Positions 4,413 to 15,005 of a stretch of DNA of 40,692 bases are shown here, piece by piece. The stretch is from assembly GCA_010015585.1 (NCBI GenBank), contig ML975151.1. The stretch is one strand, 5' to 3'. Position 1 is the stretch's first letter. Each line of letters opens with the position of its first letter. This stretch comes from Eremomyces bilateralis CBS 781.70. Its lineage: Eukaryota. The notes below the pieces were generated by a model that was given only the letters and a program-made list of their open reading frames with translations, was not told the origin of the DNA and searched no databases. The position numbers were made by a program, and so were the translations under genes.

Positions 4413-5596
4413 ATGTTAATACAAAGAATATCACGGCAGAAATGCCTACGGCAAGCTGCCGCCCAGTTTAAAGTACGTGCCGACTGCTTACGCGAACTCC
4501 ACCACGCAGATACTAAGACAGCATTAAGAAAATCACCTGGACAAGTCCAACCCAAGCTCGACAACTTCACCATGTCCCGGTTCTAGACCATGAAGCAGCC
4601 CTTCGCGAAAATGGAATACCGGGACTTCTATCACCAGGAGCGTTTGATATGGCGTGGACAGAATATCAAGGGTCAATGATTGAGAAGCTGTCTGCAATCA
4701 CGGCTGGTACGTTTCCTTCAACCCAGATATACACCACCACGGCATTTGCTGATGATCATCAATAGGTACAACTCGAGAGCATATGTCGGTGCACGATATC
4801 ACCCTCGAAACCGCCCGTGACCCTCTGATGGCCAACACCTTCAACTACGCCTCCATGGCCTGGAACAACCACTTTTTCTTCAACGGCATGGTATGTCCTC
4901 CCCCCCAACCCAATCGCATCTAACTTACCCGTCCAGTTCACTGACCCGAACCCGGACGCCAATCGCCCCCTTCCCAACAGCACCCTCCACGCACTCCTCA
5001 CCCGCCGCTTCTCCAGCCTCGACACCCTGCGCGCCGAGTTCCTCTCCACCGCCCGCGCCACCTTCGGCCCAGCCTTCGTCTGGCTTGTTTACCACCCCAT
5101 CACCCGCAAGCAGAACACCCAGTTCTCCATCCTGACCACCTACCTTGCCGGCAGCCCGCACAGCGGCGCGCATTGGCGCGTGCAGAGCGAGGACATGAAC
5201 ACGCAGAACGTCGGGAGTGCGCGCGCGCAGGGGCTGGGTGAGTTCAGCGCGGCAGCGATGGCGGCAAGACAGCAGATGGGGTCGACCGGGGCCCCGGGGA
5301 TTGCGGGGTCGAGCGCGAATGCTGGGTGGTGGAGCCAGAGCGAGGCGCGGGGAAGGAAGGTGGCGTTGGGAGGGATCGACTCGACGCCGTTGTTGTGCGT
5401 GAACACATGGGAGCATGTGTGGATGTGGGATTGGGGGGTGAGGAATAAGGGAAAGTTCTTGGAGGCGTGGTGGGATCGGATTGATTGGGAGAAGGTGTCG
5501 CAGAGGATGTCGTTGCCGGAGCCGAGCCGGGTGGGGGAAACGCAGGCGGGAATGGATCGGGTATTTGATAGTGAGTTCGGTAAGCGGGCTGCATAG
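4413..5596 (+). CDS. Mitochondrial small-subunit ribosomal protein of the Fe/Mn-SOD fold (Rsm26/Mrp1, mS42/mS43 family), 3 introns
   Basis: Basic presequence-like N-terminus MLIQRISRQKCLRQ; GIPGLLSPGAFDMAWTEYQG, FNYASMAWNNHFFF, FGPAFVWLV, LTTYLAGSP, PLLCVNTWEHVWMWDWG..WWDRIDW. SOD fold, but the canonical DxWEHAY ligand motif is altered. Confidence 0.8.
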
Positions 5597-6238
5597 ATTC
5601 GGGAATTTGGGCAGGTGTGCATATGCAATTGATGGATGTAGTAACCACTTGTACAAATAGAAGCTATTCATTCTCGTTCATGGTTAGCGTGTATCTACTG
5701 GTATGTGACTCTTTCTGTTTTAGCAGGTATCATTCCGACGACCACACTTATCCAATCATCTAGTATTTTCGAACCTCCTCTAATTACCAATGCCTCACAA
5801 TTACCATGCTTAAAATCTAAAAGGTTGGATATCAAGATTCCGTAAATAGCTAGCCCCAAGCAGCAATGGACCCTGGGCCTGGCACACGCCACTAACGCGC
5901 CCCTTGTCCGCGAACGCCAATCCCCAACCTCTCCACTAACCTCCCATTCGCAGTGGAGAGAGAACTACTGCACCTCTCAGCTCCGGACGGCTTCAACTTT
6001 CTGCAAACCTTCCGGAAGTCCAGACATTACATTGATATCACTTCTCTCGCATCAATTGCTTATTTTGTACGCAAAAGGAGGACCGGGACTCGATATTTCC
6101 ACACCACGACTCGGAGATTTTGGACCATTGGACCCTCGAACCCTCGAACCCTCGTCGGGCCAGACAGCTTTAGTGAACCGTACTGGTAACGGTTGCCAAT
6201 ACATTATCTAGCGACCAGCAATTCGATACACCTATATC

Positions 6239-6775
6239 ATGCCTTGGTTCTCCTCTTCTCGCTCCTCCCACTCCTCCTCGCACTACCCCTCCCACTCCCA
6301 CTCCTCGTCCCGCCCCGCCTACGTCCGCTCCAGCGCCGGCTCCTCCTACTCCCGGTCCTCTACCTCCCACTACAAGCGCCGCCCGCGCGACGGCTATATC
6401 GCACGCCTGCTGCACAAGCTGAAGCGCCTGTTCCGCGAGCTGTGGTACTACGCGCGGAAGCACCCGATGAAGGTGTTTTTCTTGGTGATCATGGTAAGTT
6501 TCGTCGAGACTTTTGGAAGATGATGAGGGGGTGCTAATGGAGGTGGGTAGCCGTTGATTTCTGGGGGTGCGCTCGCCGGGATTGCGAAGCAGTTCGGGGT
6601 GAGGTTGCCGGCGTTGTTGTCGGGGGCCGGAGCGGCGAAGGCGGCGGGTGGGGGGTATTATGGGAGTGCGGGATATGGGTCGGGGTTGGCGAGTAGCTTG
6701 GGGGGTGGGTTGGGTGGTAGTTTGGGGGGTGGTGGGGTTGGGGGCTTGCTGAAATTGGCGAAGGCGTTTATGTGA
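6239..6775 (+). CDS. Small hypothetical protein (Ser/His-rich N-terminus, hydrophobic segment, Gly-rich tail); intron 6494-6550
   Basis: ORF 6239 (…YKRRPRDGYIARLLHKLKRLFRELWYYARKHPMKVFFLVIM) joins via gtaagt...gctaat...tag to PLISGGALAGIAKQFGVRLP…; strong C/G third-position bias. Confidence 0.75.
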
Positions 6776-7241
6776 GAGGGAGATGGGAGGAAGAAGAGGC
6801 AGAGATTAGAGAAGAAAGGCGTGGCGAGCAATGGAAAAGGAGGAGAGTTTTAGATAGGGCGGATTTCGATTCTCATGACACGATACCATCCAGACGGCTG
6901 GACAGTCGAGGGTGGCTTATTGACGACTTAAAAGGACGTACACGACTTGTACACGACTTGCTTTGCTAGATTCAACAATGACAATATGCTATGACAAGAT
7001 CTGTATCAAAGGGTGCGACTTAATCTTCTGTGGTGCAGATAATAGGCAATGAGGGCTTAACAATTGGGACGTCATGCTATGACTTTCGAAAGACTCGGGT
7101 TGTTGGACAGCTAGCATGACGCTGAAGAATTCTACCTGATATAATACAATTACCTTCTACCCAAGTCTGCGGCCTATCCTTTTGTACACCAAGGTAATAA
7201 TACCCGACTCAACCCACCAAGTGAGAGCAAGCATGATGCGA

Positions 7242-8582
7242 TCACCTATGCCGAACCTTTGACTTCCGTTTTGTGGCTTCGGCATTCTGATTCGGTGCAG
7301 TCGCCTTGCTCAGCAACTCGTTCTCATCTGCCTCATCGCTCTTTATTAGCGGCTCGTCCTGGTCTTGGTATCCGGCTGGGTTGATGAGGCGTCCGATCGA
7401 GGCATTGTACGCCCAGATGGGTAATCGGAACACAATGGTCTTGAATATCGTGGGTTTCTCGATCTCGTCGACCTGCGAGCAGTCAGCTTCCGTCACTCCA
7501 ACTTTCAGTCCAGGACACCTACATCAATCAAGAATTCCATCACCTCTCCCTCCTCCGTCTCCTCCTCGATGAATACATTTCCCACCGAATCCACCAGCAA
7601 ACTCTTCCCATTCGGCGCCGTCACCCGCTTTTTATTCCCGACAGGCCCCGAGATGATCTTCTCCGCCTCGACGGGCGCGCTGATATCCTCCTTGATACTC
7701 TTCCCACCCTTCCCATTCTTCCCCGACCGCTTCGCTTCCTTGTCCTGCATTCTCTTCTGCCTCCGGTTTAATGCACTGCCGCTGCCTTCGCTATCCCCAC
7801 CGCCACTCGCCTGCGCCGCGCTCGACTCGCCGCCCGCTCCGGTCCCCAAACCCGTCGGAATCCCCGGGACCCCCAACGGATCTCCCCACGCCATCTGCCG
7901 CGCATGCCTCGTATACCTCTCCACGAAGTCCCTCTGCCGTTTATAGCTCAAATACATCGCTCCGTAATGGATCGCCCCCCCCCCAAACAGGAACAACCCC
8001 AGCAACACCGTCCCCGTCCCCGGCCGCACCCGCTCGTAATAGTACCCCGTCCCCCGCCACGCTGGGAACCCGTTCTTCAGAAAATAATCGTACCGCGCCC
8101 GGTCCGGCCCGCGAAGCACCGTCATCACCACGCTTAGCCGCGCGAACCGCGCCGACGCCTCCTTCTCGAACGTCGCGATCTCCCGCGCCGTCGGCTGCTT
8201 GCGCACGTGCACCGTCGGCTTCGCCTTCGGGTCTTTGTCTTTCTTGGGCTTCGCGTACGATGCGATGAACGCCTGCTTCGCCTTGTCCGGGTGCAGCTGC
8301 CGGGATTTCTTCTTGTATCCGCGGTCGAGGGCTTCCCGCGACGCGCTGGGCGGGACGCCCAGCCATTCGTACCAGTTTTGGCCGTGCTCGGCGGCGGCGA
8401 CTTCGTCGTGGAGACGGAAGATTTCGTGGTCTGGGGGTGGTGCGTTAGCGGTGGGATATAGAGGAATATGACTGCAAGGAAGAATGATGCGCTGCAATTG
8501 AGATTCACGAACCTTCTTTCGTCCAGGCCAAGGTCACCGTGGCGAGAACGGCGATCAGCAACAGCGTCAATACCGCCCTCAT
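7242..8582 (-). CDS. ERJ5: ER membrane DnaJ-domain co-chaperone (Erj5-like), 2 introns
   Basis: Signal peptide MRAVLTLLLIAVLATVTLAWTKE spliced to DHEIFRL; J-domain with HPD (SRQLHPDK); RYDYFLKNGFPAWRGTGYYY; TM segment; last exon ..EKPTIFKTIVFRLPIW. Confidence 0.85.
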
Positions 8583-9349
8583 GATGGCGACACGAAACTC
8601 GTCAACTTCGTCAGGCTCACTTTAACATAAACGGACGATGGTGAGGTGTCAGCTTGGAATATCACACTCCCACACACCAGGAATGGAATTGGGACTCGGG
8701 AATTTTCGAGGTCGTGTCTAGTGGATGCCGCACACTACGCAGTACGTGGCCCAATCCGAAGAATTTCCAGTGCAGTAATAATCTGCAACAATTAAGGTGA
8801 TTTCAGCCAGGAACAAATGGGGTTGGAGAGGACAGGGAAGCTCCAGGGAAGCCAATGCCACTAAGACTTGTCCAATGTCAATTGATAGGCGCGAGGTTTG
8901 GTCCAGAAGGAGATATAGGTGCCTTATTGCCGTGCAGCCTGAAATCTAGAGCCCGAAAGAATGCCAGGGGGAATTTACTAGGAGGTCCAGAAATTCTCCA
9001 TATGCATGTCTGTCCAAGTGTCCAACACGGCTGATGCGATTCGTGTGTAGTAATACTCTGCTTCTTCCTCTCGCTCACCGATATTACAGTATTCCCATCT
9101 TCCACGTTCAACGCCTCGCTTCACTTTCTGAGCTTCTGCTCCTTCACTTCCTTTCACTCCATCAAGGCTCACTTTTGGGTCAGTCGCTCATTCGACTCTC
9201 GTTTATCTCTCGCCCGTGCCTCGACTTCGCGCCCGTCACGTTTTCAGACCAAGCTTTGTCTGAAATACATTTCTCGACACGAATCCTCAACACGCCCATA
9301 AACTTCTTAAAACGCTTCCCCTCGTGACTCGGAATCCATCCCCCCAGCC

Positions 9350-9880
9350 ATGGCTCGCATCTCCATCCCCCTCGACGCCCTGACGTCCCGCTTCAACCTC
9401 TCTCAACGCTTCGAAGGCGTCCGCTCCCAGTCGATAGCCTCACGATTCGCCAACCTGAAGCCGATCTCCGAATTCTTCGATTTCAAGCGCCTGTCGAAGC
9501 CTGAGAACTTCGGGGAGGCCCAGAGCCGCGTCAACTACAACCTGGGATACTTCTCCAGCAACTATGCCCTCATCTTCGTCATGCTGGCCATCTACGCCCT
9601 CCTCAGCAACCCGGCCCTGTTGTTTGTCATCTTCCTAGTGGTCGGAGGCATGTGGGGGATTGGCAAGTTGGGTGGTGCCGATTTGGATTTGGGATTCGTG
9701 CGAGCGACGACTTCACAACTATACACCACGCTCCTAGTCATCGGCATCCCGCTGACCATCTACGCATCCCCTCACCTCACCATCCTCTGGTTGATCGGGG
9801 CAAGCGGCGCTACCATCCTGGGGCACGCCGCATTTATGGACAAGCCGATCGAGCAAGCTTTTTCCGAGGAGGCGGTCTAG
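9350..9880 (+). CDS. YIP3: PRA1-family Rab acceptor / Rab-GDI displacement factor Yip3 (short isoform, 176 aa)
   Basis: KPISEFFDFKRLSKP..FGEAQSRVNYNLGYFSSNY, hydrophobic hairpins, WLIGASGATILGHAAFMDKPIE..FSEEAV are typical PRA1/Yip3 features. Confidence 0.93.
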   Translation: MARISIPLDALTSRFNLSQRFEGVRSQSIASRFANLKPISEFFDFKRLSKPENFGEAQSRVNYNLGYFSSNYALIFVMLAIYALLSNPALLFVIFLVVGGMWGIGKLGGADLDLGFVRATTSQLYTTLLVIGIPLTIYASPHLTILWLIGASGATILGHAAFMDKPIEQAFSEEAV

Positions 9881-9929
9881 GTGGTCGGCCGCGAACTCCA
9901 CATTCGATGCCCCCTTGGGGAAGACCACC
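9859..9929 (+). promoter_or_regulatory. Programmed -1 ribosomal frameshift signal: slippery T-TTT-TCC plus predicted H-type pseudoknot
   Basis: In-frame GCT TTT TCC at 9857-9865; 6-nt spacer; stem 1 GCGGTC(9872-9877)/GGCCGC(9887-9892); stem 2 GGTGGTC(9880-9886)/GACCACC(9923-9929). Confidence 0.75.
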
Positions 9930-11229
9930 GGGGCGACGGCGGCCAGAGCTCGATATGTACCCGACCAATGCCTGGCCGCCTGCTGCCTTCTCCCGGTTCC
10001 AGGAGCTGGGCAGTGACGACGAACAGGGTGTGGTGTTGAACCCCAAACGCAAGAGCAAGTTTGTTTCGGATGAGTTATTTTTCAATGATTTTGGGTCGCG
10101 GTTCCCGGTGGATATTAGAAGTCAGGATGAGGATCTGGCGTACGGTGATTATCATGGTTATTCGTTGGAGCCGGAGGAGTACGATGATTTGGTGGGCGGA
10201 ATTAGAGCGGACGATGAGGTGATGGTTCATCGCATCATGGAAAAGAGTTCGAGGGCCAAAGCAAAAGGGAGGGCCAATATCAGTCTGTCGACCGAGGAAA
10301 TCGATGCTCTCGAGCGCTGGAATCGGCCACGACGAAGAAAATCCTCGTCTCCTGAGCTACCATCCAACAGCAAGCGGAGCCTCAATGGAAGCCCCGGCAA
10401 TAGCGTTCGTTCACGGAAGAAATCTCAAAAATCCACTTCCTCGCAACAGAGCTCCAAGTCCAAACGATCCAAATCTAGCCGCCACGAAGACGACAATCTC
10501 ATCGACCCTCCGTACCCCTCCTCCGCCCGGCCACCCTCTTACCACATCCCCGTCGCTGGCGTCCAACCACCCATAAGTTACTACAACCCTAGCTCCTCCA
10601 ACCGCCGCTCCGCATCGTCTCCCACCCGACCTCGCTCCCGCTCCGACTCCCGGTCCATCTCCTCCACCCCCTCCCGCTCACGCGACACTCCACCTTCCAA
10701 CACCCGCTACCCTCCCCCCTCGGACTACCTCCGCCCCTCCTCCTCCCACTCCCCGATCCCCGACCACCCTGACGACCACTACGGTCGTTCCCGCGCCTCC
10801 TCCGCCGTCATGCCTGGCTACCCGCACGGCGTCCCTCTTGACCCCTTCGCCTACCAGATCGCCTCGTCGCCTGCAGCGCCACCGGGCGGTCCGCCCCCTG
10901 GCTACCCTCCCGGCCGGCGCATCGCGTCCGGGCCGCCCGACGTCGCGTACTCGAATGTGATGCGCCGCGTCCCGGTCCCGAACGCGACTGCGGCCGCGGC
11001 GAGGGGGCCGGTGAGCGCGTCGGATTCGGCGGGAGGGAGTCGGGCGGGGTGGAGGGAGAGGAGGAGCGAGTTGGGAAGGGAGATGGGGGAGGAGAGTGAG
11101 GAGACGAGTAGTGAGGACGACGATGAGGATCAGGGGGTGCAGGTGGATGTGCAGCGGATGAATGGTAGTGGGAGTTATGAGGCGCGGACAACAAAGGGGA
11201 ACAATGGATGGCAGCGGAGAAGACGTTGA
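9862..11229 (+). CDS. YIP3: -1 frame C-terminal extension of Yip3 (Ser/Pro/Arg-rich, likely disordered); long isoform about 626 aa
   Basis: Intronless ORF open from 9652 to 11229 in the -1 frame relative to YIP3; no room for its own promoter (first ATG after the YIP3 stop is at 9907). Contains ..RAKAKGRANISLSTEEIDALER and DPFAYQ blocks. Confidence 0.8.
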   Translation, partial: FRGGGLGGRPRTPHSMPPWGRPPGRRRPELDMYPTNAWPPAAFSRFQELGSDDEQGVVLNPKRKSKFVSDELFFNDFGSRFPVDIRSQDEDLAYGDYHGYSLEPEEYDDLVGGIRADDEVMVHRIMEKSSRAKAKGRANISLSTEEIDALERWNRPRRRKSSSPELPSNSKRSLNGSPGNSVRSRKKSQKSTSSQQSSKSKRSKSSRHEDDNLIDPPYPSSARPPSYHIPVAGVQPPISYYNPSSSNRRSASSPTRPRSRSDSRSISSTPSRSRDTPPSNTRYPPPSDYLRPSSSHSPIPDHPDDHYGRSRASSAVMPGYPHGVPLDPFAYQIASSPAAPPGGPPPGYPPGRRIASGPPDVAYSNVMRRVPVPNATAAAARGPVSASDSAGGSRAGWRERRSELGREMGEESEETSSEDDDEDQGVQVDVQRMNGSGSYEARTTKGNNGWQRRRR

Positions 11230-11410
11230 TTTGGAGGTCTGATTGTCGATTCTTTTGGGTTTGACGGAAGCCTTTTTTGGTTTCTGCGCTGGATACGGCA
11301 TGCCATTTTGGGACATCTGGGCAAAAAAGTAATACAAGCCTTTCCATTCGTACATCATCTAACCGTGTTATATGCGTGAATCGCTTCAGTTGCCCTACCA
11401 ATTCAACCCA

Positions 11411-12577
11411 TCACCTCACCCGAACCCCCACCCCAACACTCCCTGTCTCAAAACACTCCACCAACCCCGCCCCAAACACCTCTCCCAACACCCACTCAAA
11501 CTCCAACCCATACCACACCCTCCACTTCCTCGTCCTCCCCACCATCGGCCCCATATCCTCCCCCCGCTCCCGCCGCCTCTCCGCCGGCCCGTCCCCCTCC
11601 TTCGCCACCCCGCCATCCCACCGCTCCCTTAGCAACTCCATCGGCGCCTCCCGCACCTGCGCCCCCCCCTTCCCCAACAACCCCACCAACGCCTCCCGCG
11701 CCCCCTGCACGAACTTCAAATACGCCCCCGTATTCGGCAGCGAGAATGCATACACTTCCGCCGCCGCCTCCCGTCCGCCTGCGCCGCTGCTCCCCGCGGG
11801 GCTATACCCCTCCCCCGCCCCCACCGGGCCTCCCGACGCAATCGGCGCCTTCCCGCCCCTCCCCGCCGGTAACCCCAAGCGCAAAAAACTCCCCGCCCGC
11901 GACGGCCCCGCGCTATTCACCCGCGTCAAAAACCCCGCCTCCACCAACCGCCCCACTTCCTCCCTCCCCAACCCCGCCCGCCGCACATCCACCCGCACCT
12001 CCCCCGGATGCGCCTGCATCAGCGCGATATACTTCTCCTTCAATTCGTCCTCCAGCCCAGGATACTCCCTCACCACATCCACCCACCGCGCCTCCAGCAC
12101 AACGCCATGTCCGACCGAGCGCGCGCCCGCGCCGCGGCCGGGGATCTCGATTTTCCGTAAGGTGCCGCTGTGGAGGAGGCAGGAGAGTTCGCGGTCGAGG
12201 GAGGTGGGGGAGGGCGCGAGGGCGCGGAGGTGGGCGATGGAGATGAGGGGGGGGAGGGCGGCGCGAAAGGTGAGGAGGGTGGCGATCTGGGTGCTGGAGA
12301 GGCCGGTGCGGTGGGAGGGGAGGGGGGTGAACATGGTGGTGGTGAGGTGGGTGATGAGGGGGAGGGCGGTGGGGGTGGAGAGGGCGGTGGGGAGGTGGGT
12401 GAGGAGACCGTGGTTGGGGAGGGGGGAGGGGTGGTTTATGGTGGAGGAGGGGCGGAAGGGCGTGGTGGAGGGGGCGGCATTATGGGGTTGGCGGCCTCGA
12501 GGGGAGGAGGATTTGATGGGGGATTTGGTGTTGGATCGGTTTTTGGTTATTCGGCCGGGAGTGATGTTTAGAGGCAT
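11411..12577 (-). CDS. STK19-family (winged-helix) protein
   Basis: 388-aa ORF with LPNTGAYLKFV..AREAL, EAPMELLRERWDGG, GRTRKWR.WYGLEFEWVL.E.FGAGLVECFETGSVG, which I recognise as fungal Stk19-like C-terminal motifs. Confidence 0.75.
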   Translation of the reverse strand: MPLNITPGRITKNRSNTKSPIKSSSPRGRQPHNAAPSTTPFRPSSTINHPSPLPNHGLLTHLPTALSTPTALPLITHLTTTMFTPLPSHRTGLSSTQIATLLTFRAALPPLISIAHLRALAPSPTSLDRELSCLLHSGTLRKIEIPGRGAGARSVGHGVVLEARWVDVVREYPGLEDELKEKYIALMQAHPGEVRVDVRRAGLGREEVGRLVEAGFLTRVNSAGPSRAGSFLRLGLPAGRGGKAPIASGGPVGAGEGYSPAGSSGAGGREAAAEVYAFSLPNTGAYLKFVQGAREALVGLLGKGGAQVREAPMELLRERWDGGVAKEGDGPAERRRERGEDMGPMVGRTRKWRVWYGLEFEWVLGEVFGAGLVECFETGSVGVGVRVR

Positions 12578-13039
12578 ATATTCGAGGTGAGTTTGGAGAG
12601 GTTGGAGAACTTGATGTCGATGATGAAGTTGCGGGACATGTCAAGGACAAGTTATATGCATGACTCGTGAACAAGGATATCTACGCATGTTTTAAGTCAT
12701 GCATACCCACCCACCTAACGCCGCAGCTGCGGTGAGGTTCCTGTTCTATTGCTTTCAGAGTTCTGATGTTTTACCTTTGTCAGCGCCAAAGGGAGATGGT
12801 TTAAACTACAGGTTTGGTCAATTCAGTAGTTCGAGTCCTTGTGATAGTTTGAGTTCTTATGTTTTAGCGTCTCCAGGCGACCAGCGTTGTTGTTTTTATT
12901 CCAATGCTTCTATCAAAGCCGATATCTTCCCCTCGGTTGATATAACATTTCCAACGCACTGCTGCCCCTCTTCTATCGTTGTTGGCCTTTGGAAATTGAA
13001 GCTATGCCGGGCGAGTCAATGAATGAATACTAGATAGGG

Positions 13040-14322
13040 GCCAGCTGTTATCCGGAAGAGCATTCACTACATCAATGTGCAACGGACTTCTTGAGCTCCA
13101 TCAATTGGGAGATATCGTGATAGACCTGTGTTGACAGCGTCATGGAAGCACCCCACGTCTCAGTGAGAAGTTCTCTGTTGAGCATTTCAACCTAGTTCGG
13201 AAGATCGAATTTAATGACGGTACAGCTTGAGCTATAGGTTTCGGTTTCCTCAAATAGTGGAGGAGATTGACACTGCTCGGGAGGCGTTAACTAGCGAAGA
13301 TGCCATGAAAATCGAGATCGCGAGGACAAAGTATCTACAGTGTGTTTTTGGTCTTCATGTTTGCGTCATTTCAGGATTGACTGCATGATTCATCAAAGAG
13401 AGGACATCGATCCCCGTTCCTCATATCCATCACTACAATGTTTCTGCTCAGAAGGTCATGGGAGCACAGTCCATCATTATGGACTATGTCGACGGTCTTG
13501 TTGCTTTAGAACACCGAGAGCTCAAAATCAGCCCTCCCTTAACGTTCGGGACCCTGGAGCAAGATGAGAGCTTTCGAAAACAGATGGCTGGCATCCAAGT
13601 CCAGCTCTCCACCTACATCATTGACGAAATCGGCTGTCTGGCTCTTGACGATGAAGGCAACATAACTATTGGCCGGGATATTGAAACTTGCAAAGGGTCT
13701 TGGGCATCCGCCGTCGACTATTACAATGATGCTGCCGACCATGCCATCTCCGGGACTTTGCGAGAGATCGAGGATGATATGCTGCAGTCGAGGTCCAGGA
13801 CCTTCCCGTTGCTCTTTAAGGAGATAGTGAAACGGCGATGTCCTCGTTCCTCGGGGCCTTTCTGTTTAACAAATCGGGATTTTGGCGCCCATAACCTACT
13901 TAGTCGACGACAGTTTCAACATCATTGCTATGATAGATCTGGACGGTATAATGGCAGCTCCAATTGGGCCAGCCGCACAGCTTCCGCTCTATTCTGGCCA
14001 GCAGTGCGAAGTACCAGGCCATGTCCAAACGCGCCCGGCTATTATTGAACAAATCAAGCGAATCGCACCGAATCTACCCCGATACAAGCGCCTAATATTC
14101 GAACTGGAAAGATCTGTCTTCAAACAAATCCAAGAGCAGGGCGAGCCGGCCGAGTATATCCCACTCAGCTCATACATGCTGTCAGACACGGCAAGCGTAG
14201 TGCAGGGCCTGGCAGATTACAAGTCCCATCAAACCTCAGTCAGCGATAAATGGATGGACTGTTATGCGCGGCATTTAAAGGAGATTGACGGAGCTGTGAC
14301 TGTCAAACTGCGAAAAAACTAA
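13040..14322 (+). pseudogene. Aminoglycoside phosphotransferase/choline-kinase-like pseudogene
   Basis: FLSSINW, LSEKFSVEHFNLVRKIEFNDGTA* (TGA at 13228 where Trp is expected), TSIPVPHI, IIMDYVDG, NRDFGAHNLL|VDDSFNIIAMIDLDG with a +1 frameshift near 13900. Confidence 0.75.
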
Positions 14323-15005
14323 CCTTCCAATATAGAATGGCATGGTAATCTCTTAACCTAGATCTGTAGAAATGAGATCTCCTAGAGACGTTGAGGCGGA
14401 TCACCTATCCTTATTCCCCCTGTAGCCTATGGAGTACTACCGTTGAGGCGAAACTCAATCACTGGCCACTACTACCATCGGAATTCTGGAGAGAGTGATC
14501 TGTAAGAAGTCAAACTTTTTGGTAGGGTTAGGAACTTTTCCGGAATACTTTGGTACGGTGCGATCCGGAGTCCAGAGATCAACTTCCGCGAGCAATTGGT
14601 TTCGATAACAAAGTCCATGTCATTGTTCTGTTGATTCATGATTGTTCTCCAAGAGTGATGTCATTGGCCCACACACCCAGCCACCCTCCCAAGGCCAAAG
14701 CAGAGCTCGAAGGTCTTGTATTCCGCACTTGTAACAGCAATTACAATTCAAGTTCTGGTCCCGTGCCTCGTCTGACAAGAGGAAACCTCAGCACAGCATG
14801 AATGCAATGATCGTTTAATATGATCGTCCTTAGCATTTACACGGTCAACACAGATGTCGGCATAGAAACGAATCACCCACCACCAGAGTCCCTTCTTCAG
14901 GACAAGCCTACTCGGCCCTGAACTCGTCAGCGGAACACGCCGTATTGGAAGAAGATTGGTTGCAAGATCTGCACAAGACACAGACGGTTGCGTTCTACGA
15001 ACGAG

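Follow-up and report, generated by a model that had tools for sequence, protein, structure and literature searches.

The mRNA of the Podospora anserina gene PaYIP3 (Pa_1_8470) carries an open reading frame (ORF) for the Yip3 protein together with a longer 3' ORF in the -1 frame, and -1 frameshifting has been shown at its site U UUU UCC (Malagnac et al., 2013, PLoS One 8:e73772, PMC3777964). Here we describe the corresponding YIP3 locus on a stretch of 40,692 nucleotides (nt) of contig ML975151.1 from Eremomyces bilateralis CBS 781.70 (assembly GCA_010015585.1). The whole of this stretch is referred to as the window, and positions are counted from its first letter.

For the P. anserina gene, 12 of 12 cDNAs were reported to be identical to the gene across the shift site and unspliced. 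A stem-loop or pseudoknot, with a conserved 3-nt bulge in stem 1, lies 2 nt downstream of that site, and the wild-type allele yields an 88-kDa GFP fusion. In a yeast dual reporter, frameshifting was 1 %, and 0.3 % when the slippery site had been put out of frame. The same authors described the layout as conserved in Pezizomycotina; Capnodiales and Ophiostomatales have their 3' ORF in the +1 frame instead (Malagnac et al., 2013; PMC3777964). A review by Atkins et al. (2016, NAR, PMC5009743) includes the case, and literature searches on YIP3 and on frameshifting in Pezizomycotina found no later experimental follow-up. The phenomenon itself is thus already known, published in 2013 and reviewed in 2016, and the present locus adds another species of Pezizomycotina. 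The original prediction for this locus had mentioned a conserved -1 frameshift in YIP3 reported from P. anserina and other Pezizomycotina, and the 2013 paper is that report.

Anatomy of the E. bilateralis YIP3 locus

The locus is very probably an orthologue of PaYIP3, with a two-ORF, unspliced mRNA on which a minority -1 slip, aided by a pseudoknot, would give a 626-residue fusion protein. This reading draws on direct observations: the layout of the locus, which relatives have kept, covarying pairs in the pseudoknot, a homologous tail and an RNA-type contig that runs colinear with the window across the junction. That the long protein is made, and that the event is ribosomal, would follow from orthology with the locus studied by experiment in P. 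anserina. The features on which the reading turns are as follows.

9350-9880, + strand: ORF1, 176 amino acids (aa), the short form, a PRA1/Yip3 protein (prenylated Rab acceptor, orthologue of the Rab-GDI displacement factor)
9859-9865, + strand: slippery heptamer T TTT TCC, with zero-frame codons 171 (TTT, Phe) and 172 (TCC, Ser)
9865-11229, + strand: part of the long form encoded in the -1 frame (454 codons, then a stop codon at 11227-11229)
9907-9909, + strand: first ATG of the -1 frame, the start of a 440-aa ORF2 if this is called as a separate gene

One unspliced mRNA would carry both the PRA1/Yip3 ORF and the long -1-frame 3' ORF. Most ribosomes would terminate at the TAG (9878-9880) and release the 176-aa membrane protein. 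A minority would slip one base back on U UUU UCC, assisted by an H-type pseudoknot with a bulged stem 1 that begins 2 nt downstream (9868-9929), and would read on to 11229. The slip would produce a Yip3 of 626 aa whose cytosolic tail is disordered and rich in Ser, Pro and Arg.

ORF1 ends in GCT TTT TCC GAG GAG GCG GTC TAG. Its residues 32-172 match the Pfam family PF03208 (PRA1) with an E value of 1.4e-39 and 135.4 bits, against a cut-off of 30.1, and amongst the matches listed its identity to PRA1 proteins of Pezizomycotina reaches 76-77 %. As in a PaYIP3-type locus, the 5' ORF is a PRA1/Yip3 orthologue. The heptamer is identical to the P. anserina shift site and, as there, lies near codon 170. 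The -1 frame, entered after a TGA at 9502-9504, has no stop from 9505 to 11226. These 574 codons form the longest stop-free stretch in the window in any of the six frames, and a run of 455 stop-free codons is expected by chance at about 1.35e-6 with the local base composition. The long form has 626 aa (172 + 454), whichever type of slip occurs, and the gap between the ORF1 stop codon and the ATG at 9907 is 26 nt.

Most of the anatomy given in the original prediction was recovered. The ORF call and the Pfam match agree with its complete 176-aa PRA1/Yip3 ORF and 3' end, and the heptamer has the position and sequence proposed. A -1 frame running on to 11229 and a product of about 626 aa were both reproduced, and the tail described as rich in Ser, Pro and Arg contains 15.9, 12.1 and 11.9 % of these residues. 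The opening of the -1 frame had been placed at 9652 instead of 9505, a harmless error. The junction peptide A-F-F-R-G-G-G is simply the -1 frame translated straight through, and holds only if the P-site tRNA slips by itself; with a tandem slip the peptide is A-F-S-R-G-G-G, and for that mechanism the proposed junction is wrong.

Conservation of the shift site and the pseudoknot

Related loci were sought in metagenomes with an alignment (A1) of 15 sequences: ORF1 of the window, 13 of 120 listed PRA1 proteins and one protein from the ORF2 search described below. The underlying PRA1 search gave 228 proteins at E <= 0.001 out of 1686 candidates, and all of the 120 listed carry PF03208. The scan yielded 80 loci, all of which match Yip3 over its full length. 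In 72 of the 80, TTTTTC(C/T/A) stands exactly 19 nt upstream of the ORF1 stop codon (TTTTTCC in 68, TTTTTCT in three, TTTTTCA in one); the other eight have TTTCTCT. Within the heptamer only the last base varies, being C in 68, T in three, A in one and G in none of the 72 loci. Of these 72, 54 extend for 350 codons or more past the heptamer, and in every one of them the -1 frame has no stop over at least that length. Just 3 nt upstream of the heptamer, 23 of the 72 have a -1-frame TGA (in the context GAT GAG GCT; for example L004:3004-3016), which in these loci leaves no more than 22 nt, the heptamer included, for joining the two frames.

Synonymous variation is suppressed at the end of ORF1. 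Third-position entropy was calculated for 60 distinct sequences, comprising the -1 class and the window after loci with less than 300 nt before or less than 42 nt after the heptamer had been dropped and duplicates collapsed. It is 1.42 bits over 99 upstream codons versus 0.14 bits over the seven codons from GCT (Ala 170) to the stop codon, and the lowest upstream window of seven codons has 0.90 bits. Wobble positions remain near-invariant or covary over the next 20 nt or so after the ORF1 stop codon, where a single frame codes. Invariance of the heptamer and suppressed synonymous variation had been put forward in the original prediction as a check of its claim; the site is kept in 72 of the 80 loci, its last base excepted, and the fall in entropy shows the suppression.

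An H-type pseudoknot can be drawn immediately downstream of the heptamer, with the following stems.

9868-9899, + strand: stem 1, with 5' arm GGAGGCGG (9868-9875), 3' arm CCGC (9889-9892) plus CUCC (9896-9899), and a 3-nt bulge GAA (9893-9895)
9880-9929, + strand: stem 2, in which GGUGGUC (9880-9886, in the stem 1 loop) pairs with GACCACC (9923-9929); loop 3 is 23 nt long

Stem 1 begins 2 nt past the heptamer, and the ORF1 stop codon sits in its loop. Compared by text description, the structure matches the published one in its 2-nt spacer, its G-C-rich base and the 3-nt bulge in stem 1 (PMC3777964). Covariation was examined in 55 distinct 110-nt segments out of 61 distinct ones (set A2); six TTTCTCT-class segments were omitted, and four loci shorter than 110 nt had been dropped and duplicates collapsed beforehand. 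Over the 15 pairs and 55 sequences, 98.7 % of the 825 cells are paired. Changes on both sides occur in 4 of the 15 pairs, a number matched by 3 of 500 shuffles, and there are 10 compensatory cells, matched by none of 500. Controls with the partners slid by 1-3 columns gave at most one such pair, in a comparison that favours the structure because this was read from the window sequence itself.

All eight pairs of stem 1 are formed in 100 % of the sequences; pair 9874/9890 changes from G-C to A-U in four of them, and the remaining seven pairs are invariant. Stem 2 has seven pairs, of which three are changed on both sides (U-A to C-G in three sequences, G-C to A-U in two and in one). Its six-pair core is 99.1 % paired and its outermost pair 85.5 %. 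In silico, then, the locus possesses the bulged pseudoknot at a distance of 2 nt, with compensatory changes, that belongs to a PaYIP3-type gene. A scan of 9000-11400 on both strands against Rfam 15 gave no match at E <= 1. A nested minimum-energy fold, considered in place of the pseudoknot, was rejected, being no better than shuffled sequences and having no compensatory pairs.

The eight TTTCTCT loci all match the Capnodiales-type site of the 2013 paper (PMC3777964). This Capnodiales/Ophiostomatales class resembles the window in its gene pair, in the conserved RNA segment GCGGUCUAG-GUGGUCGGCCGC and in the downstream GACCACC. It differs in the U-run (UUUCU as opposed to UUUUU), in the offset of the 3' ORF (+1 as opposed to -1) and in the presence of an intron in seven of the eight loci, the window having none. 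The loci examined were as follows.

TTTCTCT class: L049:3029-3085, L063:2929-2985, L065, L067, L060, L075:540-600 and L079:737-795, with L064:896 for comparison

The insertion found in seven of the eight loci is 50-56 nt long with GT..AG ends and lies directly after the TAG of ORF1, between UCUAG and GUGGUCGGCCGC. It starts with GTGAGT, contains a branch-like motif CTGAC or CTAAC and ends in YAG or AAG. L064 and the window both lack it. When the insertion is removed, the stop codon remains and, wherever this could be checked, the 3' ORF falls in the +1 frame. Since the insertion splits the conserved RNA element, splicing would be needed to assemble it. In the main text of the 2013 paper no intron is mentioned for this class, the word being used there of the P. 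anserina 5' untranslated region (PMC3777964).

The distance from CCGCG to GGGAAGACCACC is 20 nt in the TTTCTCT class versus 24 nt in the window (alignment A5; L064:896-960 compared with 9878-9930), and it is this net difference of 4 nt inside loop 3 that gives the 3' ORF a +1 offset in place of -1. Although the TTTCTCT class reads the segment GGUGGUCGGCCGCG in a different frame, as W-S-A-A instead of G-G-R-P-R, its sequence is retained. This argues for a constraint on the RNA rather than on the peptide.

The extension, the transcript and neighbouring genes

A Pfam scan of the ORF2 product gave no family at E <= 0.1. With 8000 candidates scored, its relatives at E <= 0.001 number 21 proteins, the window's own ORF2 product counted. 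The best named relative is from Tothia fuscella (34 % identity, 100 % of the query covered), and the nearest named ones, T. fuscella and Verruconis gallopava, belong to the Venturiales within the Dothideomycetes. A pairwise BLASTP comparison of ORF2 with one Podospora-lineage model gave a weak match (E 0.019, 33 residues, in the conserved helix motif only), so that a comparison of profiles was needed. One profile (A3) was built from ORF2 of the window and 11 of the 21 proteins, and the other (A4) from 11 fused YIP3 models of Sordariomycetes taken from the 120 listed, Podospora-lineage entries among them. Aligned by hhalign, the two profiles match with a probability of 99.9 % and E 2.2e-36 over 302 columns, all within the extension. 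On this profile evidence, ORF2 is homologous to the extension of Sordariomycete YIP3 proteins, and the locus thus has the overlapping -1-frame 3' ORF, homologous to the Pezizomycotina-specific extension, that is typical of PaYIP3.

The consensus of the 15-sequence alignment contains a conserved helix motif in the tail, ALxRIxRAxAxGKxxVxLxxxExxALERR, and a basic C-terminal end. In the window the long form ends in a basic cluster (...GWQRRRR, 11200-11226); basic ends of RRRK or KKK type are also present in all 14 of the aligned fused models (alignment A1, columns 830-849). Disorder is predicted for most of the tail, the Atlas model having a mean predicted local distance difference test score (pLDDT) of 0.43. 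A structure search of the Atlas with this model, of pLDDT 0.43, was uninformative, all template modelling (TM) scores by query being at most 0.18.

One public run, labelled as RNA by a guess, contains 90 % of the words sampled from 9000-11400. Its contigs were aligned on 5000-15000, and stretches without contig cover were not used as evidence. One contig covers the whole locus.

9087-11289, + strand: RNA-type contig of 2203 nt, with 5' leader, ORF1, recoding site, ORF2 and a 3' trailer of about 60 nt

This contig is colinear with the window, with no differences, no gaps and neither indel nor joint. Elsewhere the run's contigs show joints at 6492-6550, 7470-7521 and 8430-8513 (57, 50 and 82 nt; GT..AG on the + strand, with CT..AC marking minus-strand introns), and these three segments are introns of neighbouring genes upstream of YIP3. 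Intron-sized joints with GT..AG or CT..AC ends indicate that the run holds spliced, RNA-derived sequence. The colinear contig argues against a dominant spliced or edited form, and it agrees with the unspliced cDNAs of P. anserina.

Two minus-strand ORFs, at 10678-11358 (226 aa) and 10808-11347 (179 aa), overlap the end of ORF2; such antisense ORFs are probably by-products of composition. Further ORFs of 86-388 aa occur on both strands between 11372 and 12590, in G+C-rich sequence that is rich in Pro, Arg and Gly codons. There may be a convergent gene at 11411-12577 on the minus strand, where a contig of 538 nt maps (12022-12559).

Alternative explanations and comparison with known systems

A number of points weigh against a PaYIP3-type frameshift at this locus. 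Both tRNAs re-pair at a canonical heptamer for -1 programmed ribosomal frameshifting, and U UUU UCC does not allow this. As the original prediction had recognised, it deviates from X XXY YYZ at the A-site codon, where the change from UCC to UUC mismatches at the middle position, and re-pairing of tRNA-Ser on UUC requires a G-U pair at the middle codon position (PMC3777964). The spacer between heptamer and pseudoknot is 2 nt (GA), far shorter than the canonical one, which is usually 5-9 nt (PMC3777964). The efficiency of the P. anserina signal in the yeast reporter was only 1 %, the PaYIP3 pseudoknot fails to stimulate the slippery site of infectious bronchitis virus (IBV) as the IBV pseudoknot does, and the P. 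anserina long form alone does not complement the deletion (PMC3777964). In the window, nested minimum-energy folds are not more stable than shuffles (z 0.36 for the 102 nt of 9859-9960 and -0.06 for the 50 nt of 9866-9915). Stem 1 alone folds as proposed at -12.7 kcal/mol with z -1.04, and 32 of 200 shuffles are as good. The reading of the pseudoknot from the window counts here as well, as do its 11 pairs out of 15 that are invariant and so uninformative on pairing. Part of the invariance falls in the overlap of two frames and could be explained by coding constraint. The transcript evidence is a single assembled contig from a run whose RNA nature is guessed, and contigs lose rare variants and are not single molecules. 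Lastly, the in-frame ATG at 9907, 26 nt past the ORF1 stop codon, makes some reinitiation conceivable.

Several of these points concern how the slip would occur. We speculate that, if the four basal pairs of stem 1 below the bulge melt once a ribosome occupies the heptamer, upper stem 1 and stem 2 would start 6 nt past the heptamer, which is a canonical distance. Malagnac et al. (2013) considered both a single P-site slip and a trans-acting factor, and proposed an inosine-bearing tRNA-Ser(IGA) (PMC3777964). Such a tRNA could read C, U and A in the final position of the heptamer; alternatively, codon bias may account for the pattern. It is also possible, if rather doubtful, that the mechanism of recoding is a distinct one rather than a weak form of the viral one. 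The P-site tRNA-Phe alone would slip on U UUU U with the bulged pseudoknot jammed 2 nt away, perhaps held by a Pezizomycotina-specific factor. The purpose would be control of Yip3 dosage or location through a disordered, degradation-prone tail on some chains, rather than a second active protein. Low activity in the yeast reporter, inactivity of the long form alone and a last base that is never G are compatible with this mechanism, and do not prove it.

The ATG at 9907 also lends itself to another explanation, that ORF2 is translated on its own as a 440-aa protein, without the Yip3 fusion or alongside it, through reinitiation, leaky scanning or a shorter transcript starting inside or after ORF1. 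Gene callers do give the 440-aa ORF as a protein of its own (P0001), Atlas clusters have 422-441 aa, a nested transcript is compatible with the assembled contigs, and Met is kept at the position equivalent to 9907 (index 16 or 17 from the heptamer) in 34 of the 72 loci. In 30 of the 72, however, the first -1-frame Met lies at least 40 codons downstream; it is at index 26-32 in six, and two have none within the available sequence. In 19 loci (16 distinct) no Met occurs for 100 codons or more, yet the peptide blocks encoded there are still conserved and the frame is open from the heptamer. A separate cistron needs neither heptamer nor pseudoknot, and synonymous sites are conserved in both. The GFP-tagged product of P. 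anserina has the size of the fusion, about 88 kDa (PMC3777964). Independent translation of ORF2 is accordingly judged improbable.

Joining of the frames at the RNA level, in a minority of mRNAs that are edited or have gained one U when the polymerase slipped on the T5 run, would suit a shift site that is a homopolymer run, and a variant at about 1 % would escape both contigs and a dozen cDNAs. Five U residues are nevertheless far below the run lengths known to give useful transcriptional slippage, the RNA contig has no inserted or deleted letters, and a pseudoknot that is conserved and covaries 2 nt downstream is characteristic of a stimulator acting on the ribosome. These points, with the gene-identical sequence of the 12 P. 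anserina cDNAs (PMC3777964), make such joining very improbable. A small intron that joins the ORFs in frame, so that the long form is an ordinary spliced isoform, is suggested by the many database proteins of 400-700 aa in which PRA1 is fused to the extension, by several fused models in the 15-sequence alignment that omit the conserved end of ORF1 and enter the -1 peptide GGLGGRP, and by the real intron at this site in the TTTCTCT class. Removal of that intron, however, still leaves a stop codon and a +1 offset. The modelled junctions vary by species and remove conserved residues of ORF1, and the contig has no joint over 9087-11289 while three neighbouring introns do show joints. As the P. anserina cDNAs are also unspliced at the site (PMC3777964), a spliced isoform is hardly credible. 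An error of assembly or sequencing, or a recent pseudogenizing indel in a once-continuous gene, has nothing in its favour beyond the general possibility at a homopolymer run. It was rejected as next to impossible, given a two-frame layout with the same stop position in 72 of 80 independent loci and an RNA-type contig without a single difference from the window.

The frameshift interpretation of the original prediction is supported by the sequence signals and by comparison, every sequence feature of the published locus being present here. Its warning that annotation pipelines split or mis-splice such loci also applies, as public models do both. In some, the 3' ORF appears as a protein of about 400-480 aa, sometimes named PRA1 in spite of having no PRA1 domain; in others, the ORFs are fused via invented, species-specific introns that delete the end of ORF1 (for example ILG/GGLGGRP in P0078, the stroke marking the joint). 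The proper annotation of a PaYIP3 orthologue would be one gene with two products, of 176 and 626 aa, through ribosomal slippage at 9859-9865. Annotation as two genes, with the 440-aa call, or as a spliced fusion would be wrong for this locus. The published conservation, the pseudoknot and a narrow shift window of 22 nt all gain independent support from the survey of 80 loci.

Compared with PaYIP3, the E. bilateralis locus is alike in its 5' ORF of about 170-176 codons, in U UUU UCC at codons of about 170-172, in the pseudoknot 2 nt further on with its 3-nt bulge, in the poorly conserved, Pezizomycotina-specific 3' ORF in the -1 frame, and probably in an mRNA that is unspliced across the site. 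It differs in its species, the nearest named relatives of ORF2 being Dothideomycetes, and in its long form, which is 61.6 kDa in P. anserina (PMC3777964) and would have 626 aa here. YIP3 of Saccharomyces cerevisiae (YNL044W), whose orthology is given in the 2013 paper, and animal PRA1 are homologous to ORF1, and are described there as having neither a 3' ORF nor recoding (PMC3777964).

Like YIP3, the IBV 1a/1b signal (U UUA AAC, 6-nt spacer) combines a slippery run with a downstream H-type pseudoknot whose stem 1 has a G-C-rich base, and viral signals of the IBV type likewise give a C-terminally extended fusion at low frequency. They are unlike YIP3, in which the heptamer departs from X XXY YYZ, the spacer is 2 nt instead of 5-9 nt and stem 1 is bulged. 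The mammalian genes PEG10/Edr and Ma3 (PNMA) are cellular examples of -1 extension, and the Edr pseudoknot also has a 3-nt bulge. These genes are derived from retroelements and use a canonical heptamer, whereas Malagnac et al. (2013; PMC3777964) found no signature of a retroelement in YIP3. YIP3 is amongst the very few cellular genes extended by a -1 shift and, in the view of the same authors, the first of them that is not derived from a retroelement (PMC3777964).

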